DNA from: Rhizophagus irregularis
Lineage: Eukaryota
Assembly: GCF_026210795.1 (NCBI RefSeq)
Contig: NC_089431.1
Span: 3,100,001-3,164,000 of the forward strand
DNA length: 64,000 nucleotides
Direction of reading: 5' to 3'
Of this stretch, positions 14,825 to 58,600 are shown piece after piece (positions within the stretch are counted from its first letter, which is position 1; every line of letters starts with the position of its first letter). Made by a program: the position numbers and the translations under genes. The notes below the pieces were generated by a model. That model saw nothing but the letters and a program-made list of their open reading frames with translations, was not told where the DNA came from and did not search any database.

Positions 14825-15300
14825 TTTTATAACAATTTAAAATAATTCAAATTTAATTAGAACATAATTACCAGTGGTACCACTACCACAGTATCTGTTA
14901 TAAATTCAATTAGAACTAAATTTATTAAATACTATTAGTGTGTCGGCAAAAAAAAAATGCAATTAAGTAATCAATTCGGTTAAATTACTGCCGATTTGGC
15001 TACACAAAATTTAGGGTCAATTATACCGGTTAATGACAATTGGTATGACAAATAATATTATCGAAAATAGTCATTTATTGAATCAGAAAATAAAATAAAA
15101 TATATAATAATATAAAACATAATAATAAAATAAAATAAAACATATAATAATATAAACATAATAATAATTAAATAAAATAAAACATATAATAAAATAAAAC
15201 ATATAATAATAAAATAAAATAAAACATAATATTAAAATAAAATAAAACATAATAATAAAATAAAATAAAATATATTAAAATAATAAAATAAAAAATAAAA

Positions 15301-20859: not shown

Positions 20860-21660
20860 ATATTTGATTGATTTGATATTTTTATAGATAATATCATTTT
20901 GATATTATTTTGATACTGAATTAATATTAAAATAATATTATATTGATATTGCATTTATTAAAAAAAATCATTATTGTTATAACAATATCAAAATGATATC
21001 GTTTCGTTATTTGTCAATATCGATTAGATAATTATAAAGTGATATCTTTACGATATCATATTGATATTGAATTAATGTTAGAACGATATCATATTAATAT
21101 CGTATTTACTTTCTATTTTTCATTATTGTTATAACAATATCGAAATATCGATATGATATCGATTTGATGTTTCGTCAATATCGTTATGATGTCGATTAGA
21201 TAATTATAAAGTGATATCTTTACGATATCATATTGATATTGAATTAATGTTGGAACGATATCATATTAATATCGTATTTACTTTCTATTTTTCATTATTG
21301 TTATAACAATATCGAAATATCGATATGATATCGATTTGATGTTTCGTCAATATCGTTATGATGTCGATTAGATAATTATAAAGTGATATCTTTACGATAT
21401 CATATTGATATTGAATTAATGTTGGAACGATATCATATTTATATCGTATTTACTTCCCATTTTTCAAAAAATTCATTGTTGTTATAACAATATCGAAATG
21501 ATATCGATCTGATATTTTTTCAAACAAATATCTTTACGATATCATTTCGATATATTGAATTAATATTGAAATGATATCATTGCGATATCATAATGATATC
21601 ATTTGCAAATCGATATCGCCACGATATTTATTTAACATCATTATTATATCAATTCGGTAT
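20860..21660. repeat. Right subterminal repeats (~180-bp unit, about 3 copies plus degenerate ones)
   Basis: Repeated GATAATTATAAAGTGATATCTTTACGATATCATATTGATATTGAATTAATGTT. Confidence 0.9.
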
Positions 21661-25990: not shown

Positions 25991-26625
25991 ATTGTGCCAA
26001 TTTTTCATTTGTTTTGTAACTTCTCCAGCCCAACGCAAAATATTGCATTACCGTAATTCCCATTTTCCAATTCATCTATAACCCCTTCTTATGTAACCTT
26101 CCTTTTTATAATCAACTCTTCCATATCTTCTCCTTTACTGAGTCAACAATTTTTGGAACAAGCCAAAGTTTAATCTTAAGTGTGATATACTAACGGGTTA
26201 ATGATTACAATTTGTTTTAATAAATTGTAGAATTTAAAAAATCACAGCAATAAGTAAAATACATGAAATCTAGCTATTAAACTTGACAAGAAGTGCGCAT
26301 CCCACAATGCACATCCCACAATGGGGACCCATCCTTCGACTTAAAAAGCTTTATAAACTGATGAGAAAAAAATTCATTTGATATTGATATTATCAGATAC
26401 AAATATTCTATCATTACACGTCAATTGTATAATTCAGCGCATTATGAAGTTGATATGTTCGAATGATGAAATTGTCAAAAATATACTCGCGTTTTATTTG
26501 AAAAAAATAAAATAAAATAAACCATAAAAAAAAAGATGAATTCAAATAAGGTTCATCTTATTGTTCACGGTAAAAAAACAATTGCGAAATTTAGATACCT
26601 CCCCTATTAAACGATCATTTCCTAG

Positions 26626-27363
26626 TTATTCTAAATTCAACGAGTATCTACTCCCTTCTACTGAAACATGATCAGCTCCATAGGTACTTTCTAAGTATCT
26701 ACGTAAAGAATTTGAACCATCAATACATTCTTCAATAACTTGAAATTCGAATCGTTTAGTATTAGTGATCCTTCGAGCTGAATCAAACCCTCTACAAAAT
26801 GAATTTAATGCTCCCTCATTTGTAAGAAGCGGAGGTTTCACATTGAAAATGACAATTCCAGAATTATTAGCAGTAATAGAAACAAAATTTTCTAATTCTG
26901 CTAATATTTCTTCAGATTCCAAAGTTTTACGTAATGCTTTAGCAATTGCGCCAGCGAATAAACCAGCGAATAAACTACCTCCTACGCCAGAAGCAATAAT
27001 CCCTCCAATACCCAAACCAGCAGCGCCAACTGATTGTAAAATCGCTACAAGGCTACCAGCAGCAACAGTTCCGCGATGTAAGGACATCATCCATGCTGCG
27101 ATAGATCCAGCTGCAATACCAGCTTCACCGAATCCTATTGCACCTACTATTCCGCCAACTATTGCTGGACCTGCCAAAAGACCAGCTAGTGCAAAACCTC
27201 CCGTCAACAAAGCAGTCTTGTGTTCAGAAAAAAATTTCTTGGCCTTATCTCCAAAGTCTTGTTGTGGTTGATTAGCCTGAGCTATAAAGTTATCTTTCTT
27301 TAGGGAGTCGATAATAACTCCTTTGCATTTATCAACGTCAGAAATATCTGATAGTCTTGTCAT
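26626..27363 (-). CDS. IFI6/IFI27 (ISG12, Ifi-6-16 family)-like membrane protein, copy 1 (245 aa)
   Basis: Family motif GF.EAGIAAGSIAAWMMS...VAAGSLVAILQSVGAAG plus a ~100-aa C-terminal extension; single exon. Confidence 0.85.
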   Translation of the reverse strand: MTRLSDISDVDKCKGVIIDSLKKDNFIAQANQPQQDFGDKAKKFFSEHKTALLTGGFALAGLLAGPAIVGGIVGAIGFGEAGIAAGSIAAWMMSLHRGTVAAGSLVAILQSVGAAGLGIGGIIASGVGGSLFAGLFAGAIAKALRKTLESEEILAELENFVSITANNSGIVIFNVKPPLLTNEGALNSFCRGFDSARRITNTKRFEFQVIEECIDGSNSLRRYLESTYGADHVSVEGSRYSLNLE

Positions 27364-27763
27364 TTTCTTTATAAACCTTTAACGAAAGAGATATGAATAG
27401 CAAAAGTAGTACTCAAAAGTATGTAGATATAAAAGGATTGTTTAATACCTATAGTGAATAAATTGTAAAAAAATTTCGATGCAAAATCTTATTTCTCGAA
27501 TATAGATTCTGTTTCACATCCTATAAATTGAGATGATTTTCTTATTCTGGAAATTTCTGTTTTCCTGAAATCTATGTAGTACAATCAACGTTTGATTGAT
27601 AAACCCGTACCGTGTACGCCACGTACTACCGGACTCGCGGAATTATATCTTTATATAATCAAAGCTAATAAGTTCAACTAGACTTTTTATGTACAAAGCA
27701 GAGTTGTTTTACGTATATACAAAAAAGCTTTCAATGTGGCTGGCATTAGAAGTTTAGCCACTC

Positions 27764-27907
27764 TAGTGTTTCGAGCGAAACTAGTTTTGCCTAAATAATC
27801 TACAAAAATCATTTCCAAATTTTGGTTTCGGAAGTTTCGGATAGTTTTTGGCTTATATTAACTTGGGACGAAACGGATTTTGAAAAATAGTTTCGCCCGA
27901 AACTATA
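27764..27907. mobile_element. hAT-type MITE (copy in unit 1)
   Basis: TIR TAGTGTTTCGAGCGAAACTA / TAGTTTCGCCCGAAACTATA; TSD AGCCACTC / AACCACTT; present in all three units. Confidence 0.7.
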
Positions 27908-28630
27908 AACCACTTTAATACTTAAAAACGTAAAATTATTTTGGGGAAAAAAAATTTCGATCAGAACAAAATTCTGATTTGAATTGATTATGATTAAAAA
28001 ATTCACAATAAAGGGATTTGTCATATGGAAAACGCCCAATGTTTTTAAGCGTGTGCAACATCAATTAATCAACGAAGTCCATTTATAAGTCTATATTTTT
28101 TTTTGATTTTTTCAACATTGCAAATGGTAAATTAAAATAATTAACAACCGAATTTCGCAATCTATCTCAGGAACTTCAAAGAGTTCAAAGTTCAAACCTT
28201 ACCACCATAAATTTTGCAAAATCTTCAGAACAATGTATTCAAAGATATCAAACTTCGTAAATAGAATTCGTAAATATATATGATTTTAATCAGTTATTAG
28301 ATAATTATTATCTTATTCATTTAAGGATACATGAGTTATTTATTGTACGACTATTTAATTCTAATCAAAATGTGAATCTAGAACCTCTCTCAATTGGTTC
28401 CGACATATTCAGAGCATTCTGTATATTTTTTTATAATCAACAAATTGACGTTCTCTTGAACTTTTACTGTATGCTAATAAACGGAAATGTTGAAACCATC
28501 GAGAACGATTGGAAAGATACTTTAGAGTTATATTAATATATACTATGAATCAAAGTCTGGTTGAAATTTTGTCACTTGTGTCAGTTCTTCTCGTTCTTTA
28601 TTTATTCTGGGGACATTTAGTGCTGGTATA

Positions 28631-28822
28631 CATTCAAACCTTTATATAACGATATGTCGGGATATATAAGAAATTTTTAATTTAGGAAATATCGTTATAT
28701 CAAAGTTATACCGATAATATGTCCTCATATATAGAGTGGGAAAATAAAATTTTATCGGTATATCAAGTTTTTAATAGTATATCAGTACATATATCGAATA
28801 TCGGTATATCGAGGTTAGACTG
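28631..28822. mobile_element. TA-flanked CAGT-type MITE present only in unit 1
   Basis: Termini CATTCAAACC...GGTTAGACTG with TA flanks; empty site in unit 2 (GTGCTGGTATATG near 32510). Relatives near 37497-37625 and 44908-45072. Confidence 0.75.
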
Positions 28823-30353
28823 TATGTTACATTTGTCACATTTGAGAAAACACCACTGGTGATAAATAGTATACAAGGTCTATATGACCCTCTTACTCAG
28901 TCCCAGGTATATAAAAAACATAAGATTTCTCTCTCTAAATGCACACCTTCTCTAAATGCATATTTTTCAAATTTTCATTATGGTCCTAAGGGGGTGCATT
29001 TAGAGAGTGTTGACTGTAAAATAATTATTAATCATTACTAATTAAAAATAAATTTTTTTTATTAAAATATATTAAATGGTAATATACTGTATAGTTTTAT
29101 AAATTGTATTTATAAGCAGATCCAATTTTTAATTCTAAAAATAAGTCAAAAATAATATTTAAAATCATTTTTGGTGTTTTAATTAATTTGTAAAGTAGAT
29201 AAAATTACACATTGTACATTTTTAAAAAATTTTATATATTAAAAATTTCTTTTTTACAAATTTTTATTACAGGATACAAGATTTAAGCATCATACAGGAT
29301 GGTGAAATATACATTTACTCTAAAAATATATTATTTAAAATATCTTAATAAGATGAATTTAATATTAAAGTTACAATTCATTTCTTTAGTTATTTTAAAT
29401 ATTCTTGAAATTTCAATATTTGTTATATGGAATGAGATGGGATTCAATATGGCAAAAGTAATATATATATATATATTGTAACCAACTTTTACAATAACCA
29501 TCTAGATTTATTAGCAGGCTAAATAAAATGATCAAATCATTTCTACCAATAATAATATTTTACCTACCAAAAGACATTAGATCAGTTTTGTAACTTTTCC
29601 GGCGTCATGCAAAATATTGCATTACCGTAATTCCATTTTCCAATTCATCTATAATCTCTTCTTATGTAACCTTCCTTTTTATATCAACTCTTCCATATCT
29701 TCTCCTCTACTGAGTCAATAATTTCTGGAACAAGCCAAAATTTAACCTTAAGTGTGATGTACTAACGGGTCAATGATAAAATTTTGTTTTAATAAATTGT
29801 AAAATTTAAAAAACTGTTTTTTTTTTGTTTTTTTTTTACTTTAGAAAGACAGTCACAACGGTTAAATTAAATAAATCACAGCGGTAAGTAAAATACATGA
29901 ATCTATCTATTTAAACTTGACAAGAAGTGCGCATCCCACAATGCACATCCCACAATGGGAACCCATCCTTCGAACTTGAAAAACTTTATAAACTGACGAG
30001 AAAAAAATTCATTTGATATTAATAGTACGTGATATTATCAGCAGATATAAATATACTATCGTTACACGTCAATTGTATAATTCAGCGCATTATGAAGTTG
30101 ATATGTTCGATTTATGAAATTGTTAAAAATATTCTCGCGTTTTTGAAAAAAATGAAATAAATAAATAAATCATAAAATCTCGCGTTTTATTTGAAAAAAA
30201 TAAAATAAATCATAAAATCTCGAGTTTTATTTGAAAAAGAATAAAATAAAATAAATCATAAAAAAAAAGATGCGATCTTATTGTTCACGGTAAAAAAAAA
30301 AACAATTGCAGAGTTTAGATATCTCCCCTATTAAATAATCATTTCCTAGTTAT

Positions 30354-31082
30354 TTATTCTAAATTCAACGAGTATCTACTCCCTTCTACTGAAACATGAT
30401 CAGTTCCATAGGTACTTTCTAAGTATCTACGTAAAGAATTTGAACCATCAATACATTCTTCAACAACTTGAAATTCGAATCGTTTAGTATTAGTGATCCT
30501 TCGAGCTGAATCAAACCCTCTACAAAATGAATTTAATGCTCCATTATTTGTAAGAAGCGGAGATTTCACATTGAAAATGACAATTCCAAAATTAGTAGCA
30601 GTAATAGAAACAAAATTTTCTAATTCTGCTAATGTTTCTTCAGATTCTAAAGTTTTAAGTAATGCTTTAGCAATTGCGCCAGCGAATAAACTACCACCTA
30701 CGCCAGAAGCAATAATCCCTCCAATACCCAAACCAGCAGCGCCAACTGATTGTAAAATCGCTACAAGGCTACCAGCAGCAACAGTTCCGCGATGTAAGGA
30801 CATCATCCATGCTGCGATAGATCCAGCTGCAATACCAACTTCACCGAATCCTATTACACCTACTATTCCGCCAACTATTGCTGGACCTGCCAAAAGACCA
30901 GCTAGCGCAAAACCTCCCGTCAACAAAGCAGTCTTGTGTTCAGAAAAAAAATTCTTGGCCTTATCTCCAAAGTCTTGTTGTTGCGGTTGATTAGCCTGAG
31001 CTATAAATTTATCTTTCTTTAGAGAGTCGATAATAACTCCTTTGCATTTATTAACGTCAGAAATATCTGATAGTCCTGTCAT
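30354..31082 (-). CDS. IFI6/IFI27-like protein, copy 2 (242 aa)
   Basis: Same motif; start placed at MTGLSD (31082) by alignment with copies 1 and 3. Confidence 0.85.
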   Translation of the reverse strand: MTGLSDISDVNKCKGVIIDSLKKDKFIAQANQPQQQDFGDKAKNFFSEHKTALLTGGFALAGLLAGPAIVGGIVGVIGFGEVGIAAGSIAAWMMSLHRGTVAAGSLVAILQSVGAAGLGIGGIIASGVGGSLFAGAIAKALLKTLESEETLAELENFVSITATNFGIVIFNVKSPLLTNNGALNSFCRGFDSARRITNTKRFEFQVVEECIDGSNSLRRYLESTYGTDHVSVEGSRYSLNLE

Positions 31083-31594
31083 TTTCTTTATAAAAGTTTT
31101 ATGAAAGAGATATGAATAGCAAAAGTAGTACTCAAAAGTATGTAGATATAAAGGATTTTTAACGAAAGTGATATGAATAGCAAAAGTAGTACTCAAAAGT
31201 ATGTAGTTGTAAAAGGATTGTTTTAATACCTAAAAAACAATGATAGTGAATAAATTGTAAAAAGAAAAAACTTGACAAATTTATAATTTTGATATTTCTT
31301 GTATATAGATTAGCTCATTGCTGTTTCACATCCTATAAATTGAGAAATGAAACTGATGATTTTCTTATTCTGGAAATTTCTGTTTTCCCGAAATCTATGT
31401 AGTACGATCAACGTTTGATTCGGCTGTCTTGATATAGCAGAACTCATGTTTCATACGCCACGTACTACCGGACTCGCGTAGTTATATCTTTATATAATCA
31501 AAGCTACTAGACTTTTTATGTACAAAACAGAGTTGTTCTACGTATAAATACAAAAAAGCTTTCAATGTGGATGACATTAGAAGTTTAGCCACTC

Positions 31595-31733
31595 TAATGT
31601 TTCGGGCGAAACTAAATAATCTACAAAAGTCATTTCCAAATTTTGGTTTCGGAAGTTTTGGATAGTTTTCGGCTTATATTGGGAGAAACTTGGGCGAAAC
31701 GGATTTTGAAAAATAGTTTCGCCCGAAACTATA
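31595..31733. mobile_element. hAT-type MITE (copy in unit 2)
   Basis: Perfect 8-bp TSD AGCCACTC; TIR containing GTTTCGGGCGAAACTA. Confidence 0.75.
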
Positions 31734-34057
31734 AGCCACTCTAATAAGAGGGTAAAATTATTTTGGGGAAAAAAATTTTCTATCCGATCAAAATTCTGAT
31801 TTTGGATTGGTTACGATCAAAAAATTCTGAACAAAGGGAGTAAATTAGCTTTAGTTTTTAGTACAGAAATATAGATGATGTAATCAATTAAAATTAATTA
31901 ATTGCATGTATATAAATCTGATATAATAAATTAAGTAGCAATTTGGTACAATAAATAGGGATTTGTCATGTGGAAAACGCTTAAGCGTGTACGTGCAACA
32001 TCAATTAATCAATGAAGTCAAGTCTAGTCTTAAGTCTTAATAACCGAATTTCGCAAATCTATCTCAGGAACTTCAAATAGTTCAAACCTTACCACCATGA
32101 AATTCGCGACTCAGTTTCAAAATCTTCAGAACAATGTATTCGAAGATATCAAAATTCGTAAATATAATTCGTAATATATTTATTCATGTTATATGATTTT
32201 AATCAGTTATTAGATAATTATTATCTTATTCTTTTAGGGATACATGGGCTATTGTACGACTATTTAACTCTAATCAAAATGTGAAACTCGACATATTCTC
32301 AGAACATTAGAGCATTCTGTATATTTTTTAAGTTTATAATCAACAAATTGACGTTCTCTTGAACTTTTACAGTATGCTAATAAACGGAAATGTTGAAACC
32401 CATCGGGAACGATTGGAAAGATACTTTAGAGTTATATTAACATATATGAATCAAAGTCTGGTTGAAAAATTTGTCACTTGTGTCACATAATCTCGTTCTT
32501 TATTTAGTGCTGGTATATGTCATATTTGAGAAAACACTCTGGTGATAAATAGTATACAAGACCCTCATAGTTCCAGGTATATAGAAAACACTAAATGCAC
32601 ACCCTCTCTAAATGCATATTTTCAAATTTTCATTATGTGCATTTAGAGATAGTTGACTGTAAAATAATTATTAATCATTATAAAATAATTACTAATTAAT
32701 AAAATTTACTAATTTATCTAAATTTTTTTTATTAAAATATATTAAATGGTAATATAGTTTTATAAATTGTATTTATAAGATCCAATTTTTGATTCTAAAA
32801 TAAGGTAAATTTATGTTACATAATTTAACAATAAGTCAAAAATAATATTAAAAACCATTTTTGATGTTTTAATTAATTTGTAAAGTAGATAAAATTACAC
32901 ATATTGTACATTTTTTAAAAAATTTTATATATTAAACTTTTCTTTCTTACAAATTTTTATTACAGAATATAAGATTTAAGCATCATACAGGATGGTAAAA
33001 TATACATTTAATCTAAAAATATATTATTAAAATATCTTAATAAGATGAATTTAATAAGTTACAATTCATTTCTTTAGGTTATTTTAAATATTCTTGAAAT
33101 CTCAATATTTGTTAAATGGAATGAGATGGAATTCAATATGGCAAATGTAATATATATATACATTGTAACCAACTTTTACAATAACATCAAGATTTATTAG
33201 CAGAAAATTAGGAAATCATATATATCCTGCAGGAGTGCAGGCATCAAATCATTTCTACCAATAATAATTCATTTGTTTTGTAACTTCTCCAGCATCATGC
33301 AAAATATTGCATTACCATAATTCCATTTTCCCGATTCATCTATAATCTCTTCTTATGTAACCTTCCTTTTTATAATTAACTCTTCCATTTCTTCTCCTTT
33401 ACTGAGTCAACAATTTCTGGAACACGCCAAAATTTAATCTTAAGTGTAACGTACTAACGGGTTAATGACTACATTTTGTTTTAATAAATTGTAAAATTTA
33501 AAAAACTGTTTTTTTTTTTTTTTTACTTTAGAAAGACAGTCACAACGGTTAAATTAAATAAATCACAGCGGTAAGTAAAATACATGAATCTATCTATTTA
33601 AACTTGACAAGAAGTGTGCATCCCACAATGCACATCCCACAATGGGGAGTTGAGGACCCATCCTTCACTTTATAAACTGACGAGAAAAAAAAATTCATTT
33701 GATATTAATAGCACGTGATATTATCAGATACAAATATACTATCGTCACACGTCAATTGTATAATTCAACGCATTATGAGGTTGATAATTATGTTCAATTT
33801 ATGAAATTGTCAAGGAATAAACCTACTAGTTTAGGACAAAATATTCTCGCGTTTTATTTGATCGCGTTTTATTTGAAAAAATAATAAAATAAATTATAAA
33901 ATCTCGCGCTTTATTTGAAAAAAAATGAAATAAAATAAATCATAAAAAAAAGATGCGATCTTATTGTTCACGGTAAAAAAAAAAACAATTGCAGAGTTTA
34001 GATATCTCCCCTATTAAACGATCATTTCCTAGTTATTTATTCTAAATTCAACGAGTA

Positions 34058-34732
34058 TCAACTACTCCCTTCTACTGAAACATGATCAGCTTCATAGGTG
34101 CTTTTTAAGTAACTACGTAAAGAATTTGAACCATAAATACATTTTTCAACAACTTGAAATTCGAATCGTTTAGTATTAGTGATCTTTCGAGCTGAATCAA
34201 ACCACCCTCTACAAAATGAATTTAATGCTCCATTATTTGTAAGAAGCGGATTGAAAATGACAATTCCAGGATTAGAAACAAAATTTTCTAATTTCGCTAA
34301 TGCTTCTTTAGATTCCAAAGTTTTAAGTAATGCTCCAGCGAATAAACCAGTGAATAAACTACTACCTACGCTAGAAACAATAATCCCTCCAGTACCCAAA
34401 CCAGCAGCGCCAACTGATTGTAAAATCGCTACAAGGCTACCAGCAGCAACAGTCCCGTGATGTAAGGACATCATCCATGCTGCGGTAGATCCAGCTGTAA
34501 TACCAGTTCCACCAAATCCTATTGCATATACTATACCGCCAACTATTGCTGGACCTGCCAAAAAACCAGCTAGTGTACCTCCTCCCGTCAACAAAGCAGT
34601 CTTGTGTTCAGAAAAAAAATTCTTGGCAAAGTCTTGTTGTTGTGCCTGAGCTATAAATTTATCTTTCTTTAGGGAGTCGATAATAACTCCTTTGCATTTA
34701 TCAACGTCAAAAATATCTGATAGTCCTGTCAT
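34058..34732 (-). CDS. IFI6/IFI27-like protein, copy 3 (224 aa; in-frame deletions, slightly early stop)
   Basis: Motif GFGGTGITAGSTAAWMMS...VAAGSLVAILQSVGAAG; a 3-nt insertion near 34060 creates a stop and removes RYSLNLE. Confidence 0.8.
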   Translation of the reverse strand: MTGLSDIFDVDKCKGVIIDSLKKDKFIAQAQQQDFAKNFFSEHKTALLTGGGTLAGFLAGPAIVGGIVYAIGFGGTGITAGSTAAWMMSLHHGTVAAGSLVAILQSVGAAGLGTGGIIVSSVGSSLFTGLFAGALLKTLESKEALAKLENFVSNPGIVIFNPLLTNNGALNSFCRGWFDSARKITNTKRFEFQVVEKCIYGSNSLRSYLKSTYEADHVSVEGSS

Positions 34733-35324
34733 TTTCTTTATATAAGTTTAATTAAAGAGATATGAATAGCAAAAGTAGTATGTAGATATAAAGGATTTTT
34801 ATAAAAGTTTAATGAAAGAGATATGAATAGCAAAAGTAGTACTCAAAAGTATGTAGATATAAAGGATTTTTATAAAAAGTTTAACGAAAGTGATATGAAT
34901 AGCAAAAGTAGTACTCAAAAGTACAGTATGTAGATGTAAAAGGATTGGTTTAATACCTAAAAAACAATGATAGTGAATAAATTGTAAAAAGAAAAAACCT
35001 GACAAATTTATAATTTTGATGCAAAACTTTGTTTCTCGTATATAGATTAGCTTATTGCTGTTTCACATCCTATAAATTGAGAAATGAAACTGATGATTTT
35101 CTTATTCTGGAATTCCTGAAATCTATATATGTAGTACGATCAACGTTTGATTCGGCTGTCTTTGATGAAAATCTCTCATGTTTTCATACTCACGTACTAC
35201 CGAACTCGCGGAGTTATATCTTTACAATCAAAGCTACTAGACTTTTTATGTATAAAACAGAGTTGTTCTACGTATAAATGCAAAAAAGCTTTCAATGTGG
35301 ATGACATTAGAAGTTTGGCCACTC

Positions 35325-35441
35325 TAGCGTTTCGTGCGAAACTAAATAATCTACAAAAGTCAAGTTTCGGATAGTTTTCGGCTTATATTGGGAGAAACTT
35401 AGGCGAAACAGATTTTAAAAATAGTTTCACCCGAAACTATA
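35325..35441. mobile_element. hAT-type MITE (copy in unit 3)
   Basis: Same TIR; degenerate TSD GGCCACTC / AGCCATTC. Confidence 0.65.
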
Positions 35442-43484: not shown

Positions 43485-45589
43485 TTTTTTTTTTCGATAG
43501 TTAATGTATCGATATAATAATACTTCGAAAATTGCACACTTTATATATATTTATAATTTTTTTTTTTTTTTTTTAGTTGTTACTTTTTTTAGATCAGATA
43601 TTCATTCACACCGAGATTGTTTCAATAAAATGTCTCTCAAATTTCAATACCAATAAATTAATGAAATCATTATTTATTATTGTTGCGGTTTGTGTTTGTA
43701 TTCATGCAGTGGTACGAAATTCACTATGATCCTTTTGGTCTTGAAATACATGTTAATACATCATGCATAGCATCTTATTATCCAAATAGCTTTATAACGA
43801 ATTAAATAACCAATATTAATTTATAATCTATAATCATGAATTCTAATTCGCATGAACTGATTATAAAACTGAAAGTCAAAAATAAAAATTATCCGGAAAA
43901 GATATTTAATAATACTTAATAAAATTTTTACCGTAAAGTTTCATCAGGATTTTTTATAGTTAGGCTAAAAATAACATTTTGTATTTTAATATCCATGTAA
44001 GGCAAGGGTATACCTTAATAAACTTGCATATCAGTTGTTTTACTACATTCTTGAAATCGATTTAAACATCATATTATACAAAATATTTTTTTTTTTTTTT
44101 AATTATAATGCTAGTTATTAACAAATTGAAAAAAATACAATAAATTTTCTTGGTTTACTATTTTTATACGGATTTATAATATTAAATAATAAAAATTAAT
44201 TATTAATGTTTTATTGGTTTATTAAATAGTTATTATATAAAATAACAATTAGGAAAAAAAAAATTATGAATTTAATCTTAAAAATTAAATTTAATTTTTT
44301 TTTTCTATTTTGAGATATTCTAGAAAGAGTATTTTTAAATCTAAAAACTTTAAATATGATTAAGGTAAAATTGTATCAATATGTAGTTTAGTTATACATA
44401 TATTAATAAGGAACCATTCAACATCACTTAAAAAAAAAAGATTAAAGAAATTATATTTAAAAATACAAAAAAAAATATTACTAAATTTCACTATTTTAAA
44501 ATTTTTTTTTAATAAATCATATTACAGTTAATTTTTTAATAAATAATGTTGAATTTCAAAAAAATTTAGTGAAAAAGATTCTTTTAAAAATATAAATATT
44601 GTGTATATTTATTTAATATTTATAAATTATAATTAATATTACAATTATTAACCAATGCTAGTAAATGCCATATTTTTCCAATATTAAGCATTCCCTTTTT
44701 GCAAAGATTTTGTGTGAAAAGTTTGGAAAATACTTAATTTTGACAGTTTTAGAAAATTGTCTTTAAATATCTTTAAATCAATTTAAAATTTGTTTAAAAA
44801 ATTTTGTAAAAAATAAGTTTTGGTAGTTAAATTCTTTTATTTGTATATTTTTTCAATAATAATGTAATTTAATAAGTAGTTAAAGAGGTGCTTATTTTCA
44901 GTTTATACACTCTAACCTTGATATACCAATATTTAATATACTGATATACTAATAAAATTTTATTTTTCCACTATATGTGAAGACATATAAATATTAGTAT
45001 AACTTTAATATAATGATATTTTCTAAAAATTTTATATATGTCCTGACATATCATTATATAAAGGTTTGACTGTACTTGATATTGTATAAAAAAGGGATGC
45101 TAAATTTTGGAAGGTGTTTAATATTAGAAGTCATATAGTAGCCAATTCTATCTAATAATTGTATACTAAGGGTGATTTTAATGCTAATCGGCAGTAAAAT
45201 TCATCACATTATGTGATACGGTAAATTTTACCATATTTTTAATTTATTGAAAAATTCTGTAATTTTAGTATTATAAAATTTTACAATAAATACAATTATT
45301 TTATTAAACATGTGTAAAACCTTTTTTTTGAAATTTTATTATAAATAAATAAAATTGCATTTAAATTGATAAAACCTTATATTTACTACATTTTTTTCAT
45401 GTATTAAAAACCTATATTCATTACATTATTTTTGTATTTACTACAATTACCCTACTGATTACTATAATAAACTAATTATACCAAAATATATATATTAATC
45501 AATATTGATTTAGACATTTTTTTGATAATACTTAGGTCTCTCACATAATAAATACTTGTATTGTTGTCTTAATATTTCATTTGTATCCT

Positions 45590-49185: not shown

Positions 49186-49537
49186 TAGTAAAATCAGTTG
49201 ATTTTCAGATGCAGTATTGTAGTTATTTGTGCTTCTAATTACAGTCAACTCCCTCTATAGTTACTCCCGTTATAGTCACATTCTACTATATAGTCACACC
49301 AGTTGAATGTTCAAAACACTTTATTATTAAAATCTATCCTATATAGTCACAATCTATCTATAGTCATTATCACACCTATCCTCAAAAATCTTATATTAAA
49401 AAAAACCGTTTATAATCACAGTTATATAAAGAATATATTAAATAACTTGGCATCTAATAATTGTACAAAGATGTATCATAGCTTGTTAGAATTGTCTCAC
49501 TGAGACGAATCGAATGATGGTAGTTTTATCCTTTTCC

Positions 49538-50511
49538 TTTGCTAGTGTTTACGGCCAGACCACCCATTGCCTCTTATGAGACTAATCTCGGGTCGTGTCC
49601 TATCATCTTCAATGGGCAACCATTATACCGAGTACTTAATTCCTCAGGTAACAGCATCACTATAGAAGACATCCCCCATCGGGCCATTATAGGCTGATCT
49701 GAAGCTAGGTACACGCCGCCTACTCATCCTATACCCATTGCACTGATACCGATACTCAATTTATTTAACGACCTTTAGAGAAGCATCTACTTTCATGGAG
49801 GACTTTCGACAGGTAACATCAACCATCTAGTACCCTTCCATACCACCATTTTAGGTACTAAGTCTCACTCAAAGGCCACTACAGCCCGCGATTACCTAGT
49901 ACCGATAGTACAGTTGTTTACCCCAAGTGGTATACTTTGTAGCGACCACTCGGACAGGAAATGCAGGCTTCTGTCCAGGATCACCCCTTATGGTGGGTAT
50001 CAACCACTAGGGATCACCAACGGACCCCAAGAAGTGGGGAATCGAACCCCATAACCATGCTACCTGTTCTGCGCACGAACACCTTGGTTGGCTTAAGACC
50101 TAACAGAAGGTCAAACTACTACTAAGACATTGCACCCTCAGCTTTACCATCTAGGACGACCATCTAGCCATTACTGACCCCAAGTGGTATCGTGAGCCGA
50201 CCACCTAAACATGCCCCCAGCTCATGAGTAGCTGACCTCAGGACAGGACTGCGCACATACCAATGGCCTCATAGTGAACGTTATAAGGACACCATAACCC
50301 TTAGTTGAAATGTGCGGCCTAACCGTACACACTAATTCACCATGATGCAGTCCAACTACACTAATCCCTGTACCTTCACGCTATTGGTTGTAGCATCCGC
50401 AGTAAAATTCTTTTTATTTCCGTGGTCATGGGAATCGAACCTGCGACCTCACCATACTCAGGCTTAATGAGGGTCTCAGCGACTAACCTACCGAGATAGG
50501 GTGATCAACCC
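49538..50511 (-). mobile_element. ~1-kb non-coding SINE-like unit 1
   Basis: Bounded by TAGTTTTATCCTTTTCC (49521-49537, 50512-50528); GC-richer than the flanks, no long ORF. On the - strand it starts GGGTTG..TATCTCGG..GG and has a B-box GGTTCGATTCC (50431-50441) plus a second T-arm (50035-50051). Confidence 0.65.
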
Positions 50512-50528
50512 TAGTTTTATCCTTTTCC

Positions 50529-51500
50529 TTTGGTAGTATTTATGGCAGCACCACCCATCAGCTTCTTATGGACTAATCTCTATCGTGTCCCCTATCATCT
50601 TCACTGGGCAACCATTATACCGAGTGAATTCCTCAGGTAACAGCACCACTTTAAGGACATCCCCCATCGGGCCATTTTAGGCTGATCTGGAAGCAGACAC
50701 GCCGCCTACTCATCCTATATCCATTGCATGATACTGATACTCAATTTATTTTACGACCTTTAGAGAGCATCTACTTTCATGGAGGACTTTCGACAGGTAA
50801 CATCAACTATCTAGTACCATTCCATACCACCATTTTAGGTACTAAGTCTCACTCAAAGGCCACTACAGCCCGCGATTACCTAGCACCGATAGTCCAGTTG
50901 TTTACCCCAAGTGGTATACTTTCGTAATGACCTATTCTGGATATAAGGAGTATTACTGTTCGAATCAGCCCCCATGCGGTATCAACCACCTTGAGGATTA
51001 CCAACCAGGATACAAGAAGTGGGGAATCGAACCCCATAACCATGCTACCTGTTCTGTGCACGAACACCTTGGTTGGCCTAAGACCTAACAGAAGGTCTAA
51101 CTACCACTAAGACATTGCACCCTCAGTTTTACCATCTAGGACGACTATCTAGCCATTACTGACCCTAAGTGGTATCGTGGAGTGACCACCCAGACAGGAA
51201 GTCCCCCCAAGGTATAGTAGTGACCTCAAGGACAGGACTGCGCACATGCCAATGGCCTCATAGAGAACGTTAGAAGGACACCATGACCCTTAGTTGAAAT
51301 GTGCGGCCTAACCGTACACACTAATTCACTATGATGCAGTCCAACTACACTAATCCCTGTATCTTCACGCTATTGGTTGTAGCGTCCGCAGTAAAATTCT
51401 TTTTATTTCTGTGGTCATGGGAATCGAACCTGCGACCTCACCATACTCAGGCTTAATGAGGGTCTCAGTGACTAACCACCGAGATAGGGTGACCAACCCT
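50529..51500 (-). mobile_element. ~1-kb non-coding SINE-like unit 2
   Basis: Diverged copy of unit 1 bounded by the same 17-mer (51501-51517); B-boxes at 51420-51430 and within 51020-51036. Confidence 0.65.
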
Positions 51501-51517
51501 TAGTTTTATCCTTTTCC

Positions 51518-52508
51518 TTTGCTAGTGTTTACGGCCAAACCACCCATTCACTTCTTATGAAGGCTTAATCTCGGGCTACCGTTGTCCTTATCATCTTCAC
51601 CTAAGGCAACTATTATACCGCAGTCTTAATTCCTCAGGTAACAGCACCACTATGCGGGAAGACATCCTCTATCGGGCCATTATAGGCTGATCTGAAGCTA
51701 GGTACACGCCGCCTACTCATCCTATACCCATTGCACGATACTGATACTCAATTTATTTTTTAACGACCTTTAGAGAGCATCTACTTTCATGGATGGACTT
51801 TCGATAAAAACAACATCAACCATCTAAGCACTTTCCATACCACCATTTTAAGTACTAAGTCTCACTCAAAGGCCACTACAGCCCGCGATTACCCAGCACC
51901 GATAGTACAGTTGTTTACCCCAAGTGGTATGCTTTGTAATGACCAACTCGGACAGGAAGTAGCAGCTTCTGTCCAGGATCGCCCCTTATGGTGGGTATCA
52001 CACCAGGGGATTACCAATAGGGGACCGAAGTGGGGAATTGACCTATAACCATGCTTCCTGTTCTGTGCGCGAACATCTTGGTTGGTCAAGGCCTATGAAG
52101 GTCAATGCAAGCTAAAACGTTGCACCTCCGCTTTACCATCGAGGACGACCATCTAGCCATTACTGACCCCAAGTGGTATCGTGGAGTGACCACCCAGACA
52201 GGAAGTCCCCACAAGGTATAGTAGTGACCTCAAGGACAGGACTGCGCACATCCAATGGCCTCATGAGAACGCAAGGACACCACTTGACCCCTAATTAAAT
52301 GTGCGGCCTAACCGTACATACTAATTCACCATGATGCAAAAAGGTTCCCAACTACACTAATCCCCTGTACCTTCACGCTATTGGTTGTAGCGTCCGCAGT
52401 AAAATTCTTTTTATTTCCGTGGTCATGGGAATCGAACCTGCGACCTCACCATACTCGAGGCTTAATGAGGGTCTCAGTGACTAACCACCGAGATAGGGTG
52501 ACCAACCC
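51518..52508 (-). mobile_element. ~1-kb non-coding SINE-like unit 3
   Basis: Diverged copy bounded by the 17-mer (52509-52525); B-box at 52428-52438; internal T-arm degenerate. Confidence 0.65.
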
Positions 52509-52525
52509 TAGTTTTATCCTTTTCC

Positions 52526-55500
52526 TGTGCAAACAGTCTTATGACTTTATCTTTTATTTATATTTCAACATCGAAAAATAATCAAACATTATTATAAAAA
52601 TAAGAAAATAAACTAATAAAAAATAAAAAGAGTAGCTTCACAACTCATACAAGTAAAGAAATCTAAACTAAAATAAATTAAAGCAAAGAGAAACTAAACT
52701 ATTACAGAATCGCATACCCCAACTTTACCCGAAGGCAAATCAGTGCGAATCAACTATCCAACATCCAAAATATCAGTCCGTTACCAGAAAGAGATCCTAA
52801 GAGGTTGAACTGTTAAGCGGCGCAGAAAATCCAAGTGCGAGATCCATGATCCACTCCGACTATGTAAGAGGAGGACCAAGCAGATCCAGGAATCCCGGTA
52901 ACTGTCGCTGTTAAGAGTTGCGATTTGGTGGGAGAAGTAGCAATAGGAGAAGAATTTATAGATTTTACTACTCAGCAAGCTAGTCGAATTAATCTTTAAC
53001 CGAAGTTTTATGTGTAAATTCTGGCTGACATAAAATGTTGTAAAAGTTTGTAATTCAATAGAGTAAATTCATCAATCGCTAAAGCGCTGTATATAAATTT
53101 CCGATACAGAATAATAAAATTTGTATTCATAAAAAAGTAGGAAGAGAAAATAGAAAAGCTTAAAATAAGCGTAAAAGAAGTGAGAAGAAGAATGATTAAA
53201 AGTAAATATTAAAAAAAAAAAAATCAGCGCAATTAGCGCATTAAAAAAACAGGGTGAAGCAAAATCGGCGGGTAGAACAGGTGTTCGAAAATTAGAAGGA
53301 GCAGGGTAAGGATGTGAATCAAACCAAGGTGCACAAACATCCAATAACATTAAGATATCACAAGGTTTAACACGACCTAGTTTGAAAGAAAACCGTGTAT
53401 CACTATTCCAAAGATGTGAAAATGTCGAAGAGGAAGCCGATTTGGTGATAATAGATTGGATGGCATCTCGAAGATACTTCTTCGATACCGAGGAAGTGTT
53501 GTGCTTGGAAATTAATAACCAGAGGAAATTGTGAGAAGGTACATAAATGGAAGCACTATACGAGAGTATCCTTCGGACCATATCAATAATGGAACGACTA
53601 AAGCCAAGAGTTTTAAAATCTTGATAATCAATAACAGGGCAGTTCAGACCAACAAAAGGACCAGAGGTGGGTTTGTCAGTAATAAAATGACTTCCAACTA
53701 CAGAAGAGGGATTCAAAACCACTTTTTGGATAGAACCTGTAAATTTAGAAGATACAAACGCAACTGAAGAGTGATGTGAACGTTCGTTCAAACAGAAGGA
53801 AACATCAGGGCGCGAAGATACGAGATTACGTATATTCTGGACAATTGAGTAATCAGTAGTAGACATAGTCAAATGATAGGAGGTAGGAGGAATGACTATA
53901 GCATGATCCTTAGTGGCCATCTACATGGAAGAGTCAAGAAGATCGGGCTGAATAACATGTCGTGAAAATTTGCTCCGGTCTGATAAAAGGTCTTTGTGGC
54001 GTTCTTGACGGGCAAGTTGTTTCTTCGAAGGGTGGGAAATGGATTTGTGAGCAGAGTATGAGATAAGAGTTCGTGCAGAAAGTGTACCACTGTCATCCTT
54101 AAGAACATGATGAAAAGCATAAGATTTGCGGTAGGAAAAGTCCTAGGCGTCGGGAAGTTACATCTTTATAAAAACCATCAGCGTGTCTTTTGCAGACACT
54201 ACATAGCAGTAAAGTGAAAAAAAGGAGAAGGAGGAGGAGGAGGAGTGTGAACAAGTTTTTTGTCATGAATATGACAAGCATGACGAAAGCGAGACATAAC
54301 ATAGGCGGCAGGAGTCTTGCAAAACGGTCAACCAAAATAAAGGCCAAGGTAAAAGCAAGATTGATGATATCGAAATTGAATAAAGGTACGAGTACGTCTA
54401 TTATTACGATGAGAAGATGACCAACGGGCAAGAGAGGTAACACGTTGTGTTAATAAAAGCTGGCGTAATCTATTAAAATATTTACGTCGAGCATGCGAGG
54501 GAATACGGTTTTGTCGGTAAAAGAAAAAGGTTAAAAATTTTGATAAAATAAATTTCAAATTAGGAGAAGGACGATCAGATGTAAATTGAAATGGCTCAGT
54601 AGTTGAAAGGAGAGGAGAATTGGTATGAATCGAATAACAATTATCCGAATCAGGAGTGGGGTCCAAAAGGAAGTAACAGTTGCCTCGTCGAATAGAATAT
54701 AAACGATTAGAGCCAATATTTCGAGCAGGACGTATCCATCCATCCAGGATGGTACGTATTGTGAAAGTGTAAGATAAACACTGTACATTATCATGAAGGG
54801 GGGCTGAAGCAGAAGTTGCAGATGAAGATCCCGCAGGTATACTATTTAGAGAAAGGACCGGAGGAGGAACGTTATTGTCATTATCAGCGGTATCTACTAG
54901 AGCTGAAATATGGGGAGTTATGAGAGAGGAGTCTAGGAATTCATTTTGAAAGGGACTTTTAGGTTGGGAAGGACGTGATAAAGGTGGAACCAATAAACGT
55001 ATTGTAGAAGAGGATAAAACCAAACGCGCAAAAGACAATTTTGTCTTAATTTTCTGTGCGCGTTTAAAGGATGCAGGGGAAATCATAGAGGATACGCGTT
55101 TACAAAGAAATTTAGGAGTACACCGTGGAGGGCGTAAACTATTAGTGCATCGCATAGAAGGGGTACATAAATCTAAGATGAAATTAGGATCAGCCTCGTG
55201 TTTAGAAGCCCAAATAGCTAATGGAAGAGGAGGTAGATCATCATTCATTGGATCATCATGTGATGGATGATCGTCAACAGGGGGGATAGCGAAATCCTTT
55301 TTTGAATCCGCAGTAGACGAAAGAGAGGTCAAACGTAAGTGTAAAAGGCGTTTTTGTTCAGAAAGAGAGTCGTCTAGTAGGCGAAGGGGGCCAAAAGCGA
55401 GGTAAGCACGTGACTTGGCAGAAGAGTTGTCAGGAAGAGAGTTGAAACGAGCAAAAAGAACTTCTTGTTTAAGGGCGCACTTAGCGCAAAGGTCCTCAAC

Positions 55501-55675
55501 TTCGCGAAGTTTAGAAAGAACTTCATCCCAACTCAAAGTTGAGAAGTCGTGAGAAGAGGCCATAGGCCTAGATAAAAATAGGAAGGATAAAAATAAAAGA
55601 AAAGGTAATAAAAAACTTTAGAAAAAATTATTTTTATTATATGTAAATAATGTCGTGAGGGCAACGGGAGAGAGT
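52526..55675 (-). mobile_element. 3.15-kb coding unit, probably an internally deleted non-LTR retrotransposon
   Basis: Bounded by the same target sequence (52509-52525; 55676-55691 and 55692-55707); contains a frameshifted long ORF and a short distal ORF fragment; no RT motif visible. Confidence 0.5.
53072..55563 (-). pseudogene. Frameshifted ORF (~750 codons) of unknown function in the 3.15-kb unit
   Basis: ORFs 54328-55563 and 53072-53920 are linked by frameshifted pieces (..FIQFRYHQSCFYLGLYF.., CSVCKRH..SRRLGL.., KKQLARQERH); Ser/Pro-rich, basic, with Cys/His clusters. Confidence 0.55.
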
Positions 55676-58600
55676 TAGTTTTATCCTTTTCAGTTTTATC
55701 CTTTTCCGATCACTGGCTGACGAGTTATTCAACAAAATGTTAAACATCAGCATTATAATATTTCTTGATTTACGTTTACTGCGCCATTTAACATTTTGCT
55801 AGATTTCTCGGTACCTAGTGATTGTAAAAAGACGATTTATAGCTCGTTGGAATCGCCTCATCGAGACGAATCGAATAATGGTAAGCTCATCTCTCTGTGA
55901 TCAATATTAACGGAGTTATTACTTAAAAACCATTTAATATTTTTTAATTTCAGAAATTGATCTAGTGATTGGATTTCAATGTATCTTATACCATTAGATT
56001 CGTCTCATCAAGACGAATCGAATGGTAGTAGTAAGATCGTCTTTCTAGGATCAATATTGACAGAGTTATTACACAAAAACCATTAATATTTTTTTAATTT
56101 CGGAAATTAATCTAGTGATTGGATTTCGACGTATTTTATACCATTAGAACCGTCTTATCAAGACGAATCGAATGGCGGTAAGATCATCTCTCTATGATTA
56201 ATATTGGCGAAGTTACGATACAATAAAGTTTTAAGTATAATTCTGGCTAAAATTATGTTAATTTTTGGCCGGAATTATGGTATACAAATATAAGAAATTT
56301 TTTATATAGTCACATCTCTTTATAATCACCAAATATGGACTGTTCCAAATGTGTGACTATAAAGAGAGTTGACTGTATCAATTTTGTAGTATCATGCAAG
56401 TTAACTATTGGTTTATCTGTGTAATATGCAAAATTTATAATTAATTACATATTTTTTGTAATTATTTACGCATTTCTGTAATTAATTACGTATTTCATAA
56501 AATTGGACAAATATTTTGAAATATTTACAGCAATTAAGAAATACATAATTCCTTATTATGAAATTAATTTCAGCTACAACTATAATAGTTCTATGTAATC
56601 AGTATAATGTATGATCAACTACTTTTTAAGTTTCATAACAACTATTTGATGAGCATTTGGGGTCTTTGCAATAGAAAAGTACAAAACTCAAAAAATATCA
56701 AAAATTGAATTAATATTAAATTTGCATTTATTTCAGTAAAAAAAAACATAATTAGCATATAAAGTAAAATTAAAATTTTTTTTTGAGTTTCATACCTTTC
56801 TATTGCAAAGACCCCATTTATATGATTTATGCCAAATGGTAAAGTTATTTGGATCTCTATCTTTATCATAAGTTCCATCTACTATTAAGATATATTACTG
56901 GTAGAAATTTCACTTTTATATGAAACTTTACCTTAAGATTTGCTTAAATTTTATTGGTTAATTAATTAAAATGGAAAAAAACATAATAATATAACATAAA
57001 ATTTTCTTTTATAGTAGGATCTTTAAAGAGTTTTATATATAAACCTTACCTTAGATTATAGTATAACCTATTTTAATAGTAAATGGAATCCTATTGCAAG
57101 TAATAAAAAAAAATATAAAATTTAAAAAGCTATTACCAAATTATTTAGCAAATAAAATTATAAAATAAAATATAAATTTTAAAATAATTTTAAAAGTAAT
57201 TTAATTTTTTTTATTATTAAAAAATATTAAAATTTAAAAATAAATTTAAAAATAATAATTATAATTAAGATTATTTTAATGCTTACTGAAAATGATTTTT
57301 ATTGTATGATTGTATCACATAATTTATAATTATTTTATTAAATTCATTTTTGAAAAAAATACAATTTTTAACATATCATTATGTAATCAAAAAAATTAAA
57401 AAATAATAAAAAGTACAATATATTTATATAAAAACATGTAAAATTTCTTCTTTTTCTAATATATATATGTTATTTAAATTATTTTAGAATGCCATAATTA
57501 TAATTTGAGATGTCATAATTCATTTAATTTACTATATATAATTTACTATGTAAAGTGCTAAAATAATTTGAGATGCTGTAATTGAATTTGGGATTTTACT
57601 TATAATTACAGCAGCCTAAAATAATTTGAACAATATATATATTCTAATGATAAATATTTTATTATGATTATTGAATAAAAAATAATCAACAAATCAAGTT
57701 TCATTAGAAGTAATAAATTACAAGAAAAATGTTTAGAAAAGACTTTCACTCACCATAGTACAATAGTTTTTATATAGATTTTTTAAAACCCTTTAATACT
57801 ATACATGTATAAAAATAAATTTTGAATTAAAAAATTAATTTTAATTTAATTGTATTAGATTTAAAATTTATACTTTATCTTATATATATTATATAATTTT
57901 AAATTTTTCTAATTATTATAAGTGATAATTACTAGTATTACTGAAATTATAATAATTGACTAGCATTAAAAAATATAGTACCAGTAAAATTTAATAATTC
58001 TAGTCGATGGTGATGATCACTTCTGATGATTTAAAGTAAAAATCTTTTAAAATTACACTAATTTTCTTTTAAAAAAAGTAATTTTTTAATTATTTATAAT
58101 TTTAAAAAATAAATAATTCTTAATAAATATAATAGAAAAATATTTAATATTATTAAATTAATTTTAAATATTTTTATAAAGAAAATAACAAGTTGTAAAA
58201 ATATGAAAACAAGTTAATATTCAAAGTTTACTGATAGCAATAATTACTATATCAGTATTATGATATACTTTCAACTAGAATTAAAAATCTAATAAAAAAC
58301 TGGTTAGTATTATATTATAATTTTACTACTAATGATCATCACTATTGGTGATTTCAATTTATAATTTTATAATTAAAATATTTAATAAAAAATCAATTTT
58401 ATAATAAAAAATTGTTTAATTTTAAAACTATATAATATGTAAATATTTTTTAAATAATATAATAATTACCAATTTGTAATATTTATAAAGTATTATTAAA
58501 TTTACTGTATCAGTTTTGATAAAATAATAATTATTAGTATTAATAGTCTAATTTATAATAATAAATTTCTATTAATTAAAAAAACTTGATAAAAAAAAGG

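Follow-up and report, generated by a model that had tools for sequence, protein, structure and literature searches.

Stacking of LINEs and SINEs inside a DNA transposon has already been described in crocodilians, where Tx1-Mar and SINEU-3 target Mariner-N4_AMi and frequently form tandem insertions that flank a 16-bp target-site duplication (TSD) (Kojima 2015, PMC4494074). That report took as its criterion of target specificity that more than 20% of copies be flanked by the same target repeat, and 313 of 347 crocodilian copies showed the specificity. According to its account of SINEU-1, no LINE with the SINEU-1 3' end was found and the partner was inferred from the common target; the tail of a SINE is usually common to its partner LINE, with exceptions (PMC4494074). 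Target-specific LINE/SINE pairs stacked in a DNA transposon have so far been described from animals, and a full-text literature search found no description of such pairs from fungi. A curated transposable element library of Rhizophagus irregularis lists SINE and LINE/L1-Tx1 families (Oliveira 2024, PMC11075540), and the available portions of the text and supplement of that paper mention neither target preference nor nesting. The SINE and LINE families described below may already be in that library (GitHub).

Within a 64,000-nucleotide stretch of R. irregularis DNA (the window), four mobile elements lie head to tail at one 17-base site within a fungal DNA transposon. Three SINE-like units of about 975 bp each (U1-U3) and one LINE-tailed element of 3,150 bp (U4) make up this array at one locus, and all four read on the minus strand. 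A preliminary description had reported three related units of about 1 kb and an unrelated one of 3.15 kb in one orientation, separated by a 17-mer at 49521, 50512, 51501 and 52509, with 16-bp versions at 55676 and 55692. All four exact copies were present, as were the two shorter versions, and the layout was confirmed.

The array and its host transposon

The features of the locus, in order along the window, are as follows.

49242-49264, plus strand: left TIR of the host, starting CAGTCAACTC; 20 of 23 bases equal the right TIR; TA at 49240-49241
49242-49520, no strand: left portion of the host, whose end is a GAGACGAATCGAAT module; 77% identity across 75 nt to the module at 55807-55881 of the same host
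49521-49537, plus strand: target copy 1, exact 17-mer (sequence match)
49538-50511, minus strand: U1, SINE-like, 974 bp
50431-50441 and 50038-50048, minus strand: B boxes of U1 (pattern)
50512-50528, plus strand: target copy 2, exact 17-mer (sequence match)
50529-51500, minus strand: U2, SINE-like, 972 bp
51420-51430 and 51023-51033, minus strand: B boxes of U2 (pattern)
51501-51517, plus strand: target copy 3, exact 17-mer (sequence match)
51518-52508, minus strand: U3, SINE-like, 991 bp
52428-52438, minus strand: B box of U3 (pattern)
52509-52525, plus strand: target copy 4, exact 17-mer (sequence match)
52526-55675, minus strand: U4, putative coding non-autonomous LINE-tailed element, 3,150 bp
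52526-52780, minus strand: LINE-type 3' UTR of U4, weakly matching LINE 3' UTR read-through models
52781-52964, minus strand: last ~60 codons of a LINE ORF2, frameshifted; the final 18 residues equal those of P0183
53233-55563, minus strand: ORF-X, a broken copy of a 779-aa multicopy gene of a DUF8211-labelled family
55676-55707, plus strand: two overlapping target copies at the 5' junction of U4, each matching 16 of 17 bases (55676-55692 and 55691-55707; 16-base matches start at 55676 and 55692), as a 15-bp tandem duplication
55699-55832, no strand: inverted repeat of the host, arms 55699-55744 and 55787-55832, the first starting within the 17-mer
55708-56375, no strand: right portion of the host, containing three more unoccupied modules (near 55863, 56010 and 56160; sequence)
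56353-56375: right TIR of the host; TA at 56376-56377

Exact copies of the 17-mer are expected at 3e-5 per window. Allowing up to three mismatches, the window held seven matches, compared with a mean of 0.89 and a largest value of 4 in 100 shuffles; the match at 55006 (three mismatches), counted among the seven, is unrelated. Two unrelated element types meet the same 17 nt at the identical base and in the same direction. The GC content is 46-48% in U1-U3, 38% in U4 and 17-19% in the flanks.

Tc1/Mariner-like elements have TIRs starting with CAGT and flanking TA dinucleotides. Excluding the inserts, the host is a TIR element of about 0.96 kb with these features of a non-autonomous Tc1/Mariner-like element, namely CAGT-type TIRs (20 of 23 bases) and TA on both sides. 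The preliminary description held that removal of the inserts restores the host module, and with regard to spacing this was borne out: deletion leaves 17 nt between the host ATGG and GATCA, as in two of the three downstream paralogous modules. The paralogues themselves, however, do not carry this 17-mer. All nine paralogous modules in the window share only 6-11 of its 17 positions, and their left flanks are better kept than the 17-mer position (41-50 of 64), so that the window showed no exact empty target. When the empty module was modelled and folded as DNA, no single long hairpin formed (-6.1 kcal/mol). Since one copy restores the host spacing, and since its 3' half lies within the host inverted repeat (14 of 18 complementary across the junction), the 17-mer is likely, judging by sequence, to be a TSD. 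At this one locus, elements are inserted into a non-autonomous DNA transposon together with a likely TSD, and tandem copies lie on either side of that TSD.

The 17-mer might instead travel with the elements, if read-through transcripts or end-to-end template jumps by the reverse transcriptase copied part of the stack at one stroke, or if the element ends bear the 17-mer and pair with a host site that resembles it. All units lack poly(A) and end in two or three A-rich bases followed by the 17-mer, the extra 15-bp duplication at the 5' end of U4 resembles a copied target, and the absence of the exact 17-mer from the window paralogues is also in keeping with this origin. Against it, the 17-mer fits the register of the host exactly, lies within the host inverted repeat, and resembles the module arms (7-10 of 17 bases alike over nine host arms, compared with a window mean of 5.0). 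We consider an element-borne 17-mer quite improbable. No translation of the 17-mer junction was found among the proteins searched.

The inserted units

The units U1-U3 align over their full length and have the same ends. From their sequence they are SINE-like, with a tRNA-type B box (GGTTCGATTCC) at position 71 in each of the three, and the five exact B boxes of the 64-kb window all fall within them on the minus strand. An A box was not found in U1-U3 by pattern, nor a tRNA gene by ARAGORN, and the head of U2 (51411-51498) gave a weak, non-significant match to the tRNA clan (15.2 bits, E 1.1). A Yersinia sRNA match from Rfam was dropped, being sub-threshold and on the opposite strand. The units are non-coding, their longest stop-to-stop frames being 80-94 aa. 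The window contained no SINE copies beyond U1-U3, and a protein search that used an open frame across the SINE head, aimed at gene models crossing the junctions, gave no candidate.

Pairwise substitutions among U1-U3 amounted to 112/963, 129/956 and 135/953 (12-14%), while the four exact targets are identical. The differences fall in blocks between which the odd-one-out unit switches (71 runs compared with 144 +/- 7, 0 of 2000 shuffles), a contrast that is inflated by indel runs. The heads differ by just 0-2 substitutions per 50 columns, and 99 of 998 17-column windows (about 10%) are invariant across the three units, so identical targets are compatible with DNA duplication. An alternative is that only two aimed insertions took place, one of a SINE and one of U4. 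Unequal crossing-over among the target copies would then have given rise to U1-U3, with other SINE copies patching them through gene conversion. The full length and like ends of the units, their conserved heads and the invariant windows all favor this, but the divergence and block switching are as expected of different family members, U2 has one private extra A at its 5' junction, and the site would still have to have received two different elements; we think it unlikely. That each of U1-U3 inserted separately is a proposal, with local duplication as its rival.

U4 consists of a single ORF without RT followed by a LINE 3' end. As had been noted for the fourth unit, it is not homologous to the others: no tail common to U4 and the 3' 60-260 nt of U1-U3 was found, with p values of 0.097-0.95 in nine of nine comparisons. 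Two models that run through a LINE 3' UTR, P0216 and P0218, match 52763-52631 weakly (E 0.006-0.009). The copy of ORF-X in U4 has two premature stops and at least three frameshifts. All named members of its family are glomeromycotan and a CxxC-x14-CxxH motif is conserved; the protein is predicted to be basic and zinc-binding. ORF-X had no match among 93 LINE models and no likeness to the RRM-type ORF1 of the partner LINE (P0003 blastp versus 19 ORF2/ORF1 models), and U4 is therefore not a plain LINE derivative. Searches with ORF-X gave no Pfam family, no PDB sequence match and, using Foldseek on PDB and BFVD, no match at E 0.001. The best VIA Z scores were 3.9 (rmsd 4.2, 87 aligned) and 4.1 (rmsd 3.9, 86 aligned) to 9hq8_B, and the best Atlas value was 0.82. 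On the predicted model the fold is thus unrecognised by searches, which does not prove a new fold; ORF-X offers a confidently predicted domain without a PDB match. We infer that U4 is a coding passenger element composed of ORF-X and a LINE tail.

The preliminary description favored a SINE paired with a LINE derivative. The B boxes, the ORF2 tail and 3' UTR of U4, the host register and the host inverted repeat support that reading by anatomy; the gene of U4, which is unrelated to LINE ORF1, does not fit it. The other possibility raised there was a recombinase cassette array, in which a tyrosine-recombinase system of the Crypton, DIRS or Ngaro type would integrate circles at a 17-bp core. Direct repeats do separate the units, and Glomeromycota are described as rich in CryptonA elements with short direct repeats at their flanks (PMC13465315). 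However, the 3' end of U4 is that of a LINE (ORF2 tail and 3' UTR), neither the U4 frames nor the ORF-X relatives gave a recombinase family, and U1-U3 contain Pol III B boxes, which leaves the cassette array highly improbable.

The probable partner LINE and proposed growth of the array

The tail of U4 belongs to an R. irregularis ORF2 family (P0183) that encodes Exo_endo_phos, RVT_1 and RNase_H domains; its catalytic motifs can be recognised. ORF2 P0183 is the candidate autonomous APE- and RT-encoding partner of U4 and lies outside the window. Its nearest solved relative is human L1 ORF2p (E 7.5e-21); the clade of the RT is not fixed by its best PDB matches, which are human L1 (76.6 bits) and an R2 (66.9 bits). 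Of 179 gene models other than ORF2, five have ORF-X joined with an ORF2 tail, and in these the subfamily of the tail tracks ORF-X divergence: ORF-X at 98% goes with a P0179-type tail at 98-99%, and ORF-X at 69% with a P0191-type tail at 97.5%. Gene models also point to stacking at other loci. In 4 of 93 ORF2 models (two loci), ORF2 continues into the ORF1 of a following copy, an adjacency that, as in all these gene models, rests on splice predictions with no target sequence visible. Model P0025 passes from ORF-X into another frame of a LINE ORF1 (score 155 versus 56.5 +/- 9.9, largest 81, 30 shuffles). On one 161-kb contig an ORF-X-plus-tail model lies three accessions from a different full ORF2. 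As a point against the targeting reading, one ORF2 model of the closest family, P0204, has a splice that leads into a Ty3-type integrase, which makes an LTR element the visible neighbor of that copy. Consecutive accessions on one contig were counted as isoforms of one locus, and P0256 and P0194 (12 mismatches), possibly isoforms, were not counted as two copies.

P0144 matched ORF1 at 25%, which was discounted as noise. A metagenome scan with the ORF2 tail left 1 of 412 loci passing (L001, GC 52%), which was dropped as it matched neither the window nor ORF2. Viral sequence scans gave 0 loci, and 14 pattern matches in prokaryote genomes, none extending beyond 20-39 nt, were taken as chance.

We believe that the array probably grew by repeated target-primed reverse transcription at a preferred site in the host module. 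An L1/Tx1-like LINE of Rhizophagus would supply the APE endonuclease that nicks this site in one Mariner-like host module, the nick being expected beside the CCTTTTCC end, and the site would be rebuilt at every insertion through a duplication of 15-17 bp. An ORF2 of the P0183 type may have made the insertions, presumably in sequential order, carrying in trans both the ~975-nt Pol III SINE and the coding passenger U4. Since no tail is common to the SINE and the LINE, their partnership is drawn solely from the common site. The putative role of ORF-X would most simply be that of an ORF1-like binding protein for the passenger's own RNA. Should the preference hold up in genome-wide counts, this ORF2 would provide a fungal APE endonuclease that has a defined 17-bp site and is open to direct assay.

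It is tempting to speculate on a site-specific LINE ecosystem in glomeromycotan fungi, although we regard the whole, taken jointly, as doubtful. An RNase H-bearing LINE would cut one hairpin-module arm common to DNA-transposon derivatives and serve two passenger classes, a 1-kb double-B-box SINE and a new coding passenger retroelement. The latter would have replaced the LINE ORFs with a zinc-binding DUF8211 protein of unrecognised fold, which might package or aim the passenger RNA, and would retain its partner's tail lineage by lineage; the large DUF8211 "orphan gene" family would then be the product of coding passengers. If the passenger reading is true, multicopy mycorrhizal "hypothetical proteins" would be explained as mobile-element cargo.

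Comparison with described systems

The closest likeness is to Tx1-Mar and SINEU-3 of crocodilians, in that a SINE and a LINE occupy a fixed site in a non-autonomous Mariner, with a TSD of about 16 bp, tandem insertions around a TSD and a partner inferred from the target. Unlike that system, the array has a fungal host, its SINE has a tRNA-type B-box head rather than a U1/U2 one, is about 975 nt long and lacks poly(A), and the partner ORF2 has an RNase H; the fungal array is seen at one locus, compared with the many specific copies in crocodilians. As with Xenopus Tx1L in Tx1D (PMC4494074), an APE-type LINE appears to be aimed at a non-autonomous DNA transposon, which is of the piggyBac type in Xenopus and Mariner-like here. 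HAL1 (half-L1; PMC5753468) keeps the ORF1p of L1, whereas ORF-X bears no likeness to the partner's RRM-type ORF1; like HAL1, U4 appears to be a non-autonomous LINE relative with a single ORF.

Layout of the array and its host transposon

A scan of the window placed exact copies of the 17-bp target (17-mer) at 49521, 50512, 51501 and 52509, with one-mismatch copies at 55676 and 55691. The final two overlap, forming a tandem duplication of 15 bp, and this extra 15-bp copy at the 5' end of unit U4 may be an empty insertion or copied target. At up to three mismatches, seven matches were found in the window versus a shuffle mean of 0.89. The array of four units at one 17-mer, as given in the preliminary description, is real, and the elements meet the 17-mer in a common direction. 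The three related units measure 974 (U1), 972 (U2) and 991 bp (U3) and U4, which is unlike them, 3,150 bp. All four are GC-rich islands between flanks of 17-19% GC, and no further copy of U1 or U4 was found within the 64 kb.

The array is enclosed by a non-autonomous DNA transposon, read from the sequence as follows.

49242-56375: host element, TA on either side, 23-bp terminal inverted repeats with 20 positions matching

Its TA/CAGT ends are presumably those of a Tc1/Mariner-like element. Without the inserts the host is approximately 0.96 kb and non-coding. It consists of ~150-bp modules with GAGACGAATCGAAT at their centre, and the module occurs also at 6019-7063, in a palindromic repeat unrelated to the host. 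When a single 17-mer is kept, its distance to the next GATCA is that of the host modules at 55863 and 56160 (the spacing of a third module is longer by 3 bases), and in this respect removal of the inserts restores a host module, as had been noted. The final 9 bases of the 17-mer open an inverted repeat whose partner is the following host module (14/18 complementary), and the 17-mer is alike at 7-10 of 17 positions to nine host module arms, a tenth row inside U1 being left out (window mean 5.0). Host modules lacking an insertion had been expected to carry the 17-mer; it was absent in exact form from all nine paralogous modules in the window, which match it at 6-11 of 17 positions. This absence speaks against a host origin, but the 17-mer is likely a host variant.

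Several other repeats were observed in the window.

6019-7063: near-perfect palindrome of ~1 kb whose 497-nt arms are 95% complementary; six copies of the host's GAGACG...CGAAT module, every one insertion-free
4482, 24850, 28629-29018, 32661, 36621, 37495, 44906-45074: further TA-CAGT-type terminal repeats, suggesting additional small non-autonomous elements
8965-9833 and 20872-21532: two degenerate tandem arrays (73-bp and 172-bp) whose GATATC-rich units are related; an inverted match links the regions
12944-14836, minus strand: two ORFs (165 and 309 aa), candidate DNA-transposon gene fragments with an acidic 21-bp repeat
~26000-35400: a ~3.7-kb repeat in three tandem copies; every copy contains a minus-strand glycine/alanine-rich ORF of 229-291 aa (26626-27378, 30354-31229, 34058-34747)

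The SINE-like units and the mode of insertion

On the minus strand, position 71 of U1, U2 and U3 alike holds an exact B box, and a further one lies near 465 in U1 and U2; together these are all five exact B boxes of the whole window. No A box was found in U1-U3 by pattern search and no tRNA by ARAGORN, and an Rfam tRNA-clan match over the head was not significant. The units lack a long ORF and poly(A), and nine of nine comparisons detected no similarity to the U4 3' end. These features make the units SINE-like, short of proof that they are SINEs. Of the SINE plus LINE-derivative pair proposed earlier, the LINE member is supported by a LINE tail in U4, although U4 is no plain LINE derivative, and the SINE member stands only in this looser form. 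The CpG observed/expected ratio was 0.53-0.66 in U1-U3 (49538-52508) versus 1.03 in U4, hinting at differing methylation histories.

Because two unrelated types of element, one of them LINE-tailed, join the identical 17 bases at one and the same point and share one direction, we consider the probable origin of the array to be target-primed reverse transcription with a site preference; each insertion would rebuild the target for the next. Two aimed insertions followed by local duplication of U1-U3 appear unlikely, since pairwise substitutions among these units amount to 11.6-14.2% and the odd-one-out unit switches in blocks (71 runs versus 144 +/- 7 in shuffles, with indel runs inflating the clustering), a pattern that fits different family members. 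However, 99 of 998 17-column windows are invariant across U1-U3, so that duplication with later conversion is possible, and the earlier dismissal of simple tandem duplication holds for the divergence but not as an exclusion. Read-through or template jumping, by which the target was co-transferred with its neighbours, seems a little less probable again, and the recombinase cassettes named earlier as an alternative are very improbable, being rated lowest of all.

ORF-X and the probable partner LINE

U4 carries ORF-X, a 779-aa multicopy gene, in a copy disrupted by 2 stops and at least 3 frameshifts. ORF-X here is ~90% identical to R. irregularis models, and intact models lie on at least four contigs of a single assembly; the window therefore derives from R. 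irregularis or a near relative. There are 182 relatives at the 50% level; among ten looked up, six were named as from Rhizophagus or Glomus (two of these labelled DUF8211) and four were unnamed, and the term DUF8211 was absent from the full-text literature searched. The predicted fold of the core is confident (pLDDT 90.0 and 92.5) and gave no match in structure comparison; a CxxC-x14-CxxH motif is conserved (85/90, 86/89, 77/78 and 73/76). Small inverted-repeat elements are found at 57461-57642 and 56658-56816, and the former matches the C-terminal exon of an ORF-X relative, P0079 (79% over 29 aa), indicating that P0079 adjoins such a repeat.

Two of the R. irregularis ORF-X models are spliced to an extra peptide that ends in a match to U4 at 52897-52784, and a search with this peptide retrieved long RT proteins only, 19 of 148 candidates. 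For the full-length APE/RT element sought, a candidate ORF2 is P0183 (143 members), whose tail U4 shares; P0183 combines an endonuclease, an RT and an RNase H domain with recognisable catalytic motifs, and its best solved relative is human L1 ORF2p. U4 retains ~60 codons of a P0183-type ORF2, the last 18 identical, and its 3' UTR resembles that of related LINEs.

Evidence from other loci is indirect and consists of gene models, with the target sequence outside their view. ORF-X is joined to an ORF2 tail in 5 of 179 non-ORF2 models, and the tail on a 69%-diverged ORF-X comes from another LINE subfamily, which makes the pairing a recurring architecture. This diverged model and a full ORF2 are three accessions apart on one contig; the model's tail matches that ORF2 at only 92.5% identity, so the two are separate neighbours. 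Four of 93 ORF2 models (2 loci) run into the ORF1 of the next copy, one passing through the 3' UTR, and distinct ORF2 copies occur as neighbours in another two pairs, 4 and 8 accessions apart; as far as gene models indicate, the LINE family therefore stacks elsewhere too. In P0025, ORF-X continues into another frame of LINE ORF1, and it is possible that ORF-X is part of a three-ORF LINE with internal deletions. P0204 is spliced into a Ty3-type integrase instead and may be an off-target copy.

Comparison with known systems

PMC11075540 catalogues SINE and L1-Tx1 families of R. irregularis, and its available main and supplement text, as distinct from its sequence library, mentions no targets for them. 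Such targeting is likewise not described in the available portions of PMC11952901, PMC3747384, PMC5203782 and PMC13465315, and neither a fungal case nor the 17-mer was found in the literature searched, a scope outside which lay subscription papers, bioRxiv supplements and Repbase. HAL1, according to the available part of PMC5753468, encodes only the ORF1p of L1, whereas by sequence comparison the ORF-X of U4 is distinct from the RRM-type ORF1 of its partner LINE. Crocodilian SINEU-3 and Tx1-Mar, in the part of the source available, occupy Mariner-N4_AMi with a 16-bp target-site duplication (TSD) and tandem insertions sandwiching it (Kojima 2015, PMC4494074, which also cites Tx1 in Tx1D), as the array units are arranged around the 17-mer. 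Stacking itself is thus already known and not new; what is new is its setting in a fungus, the length of the SINE-like unit and a coding passenger whose zinc-motif domain is unrecognised. The likeliest reading of the array is a known kind of target-preferring LINE/SINE system in a fungal form.
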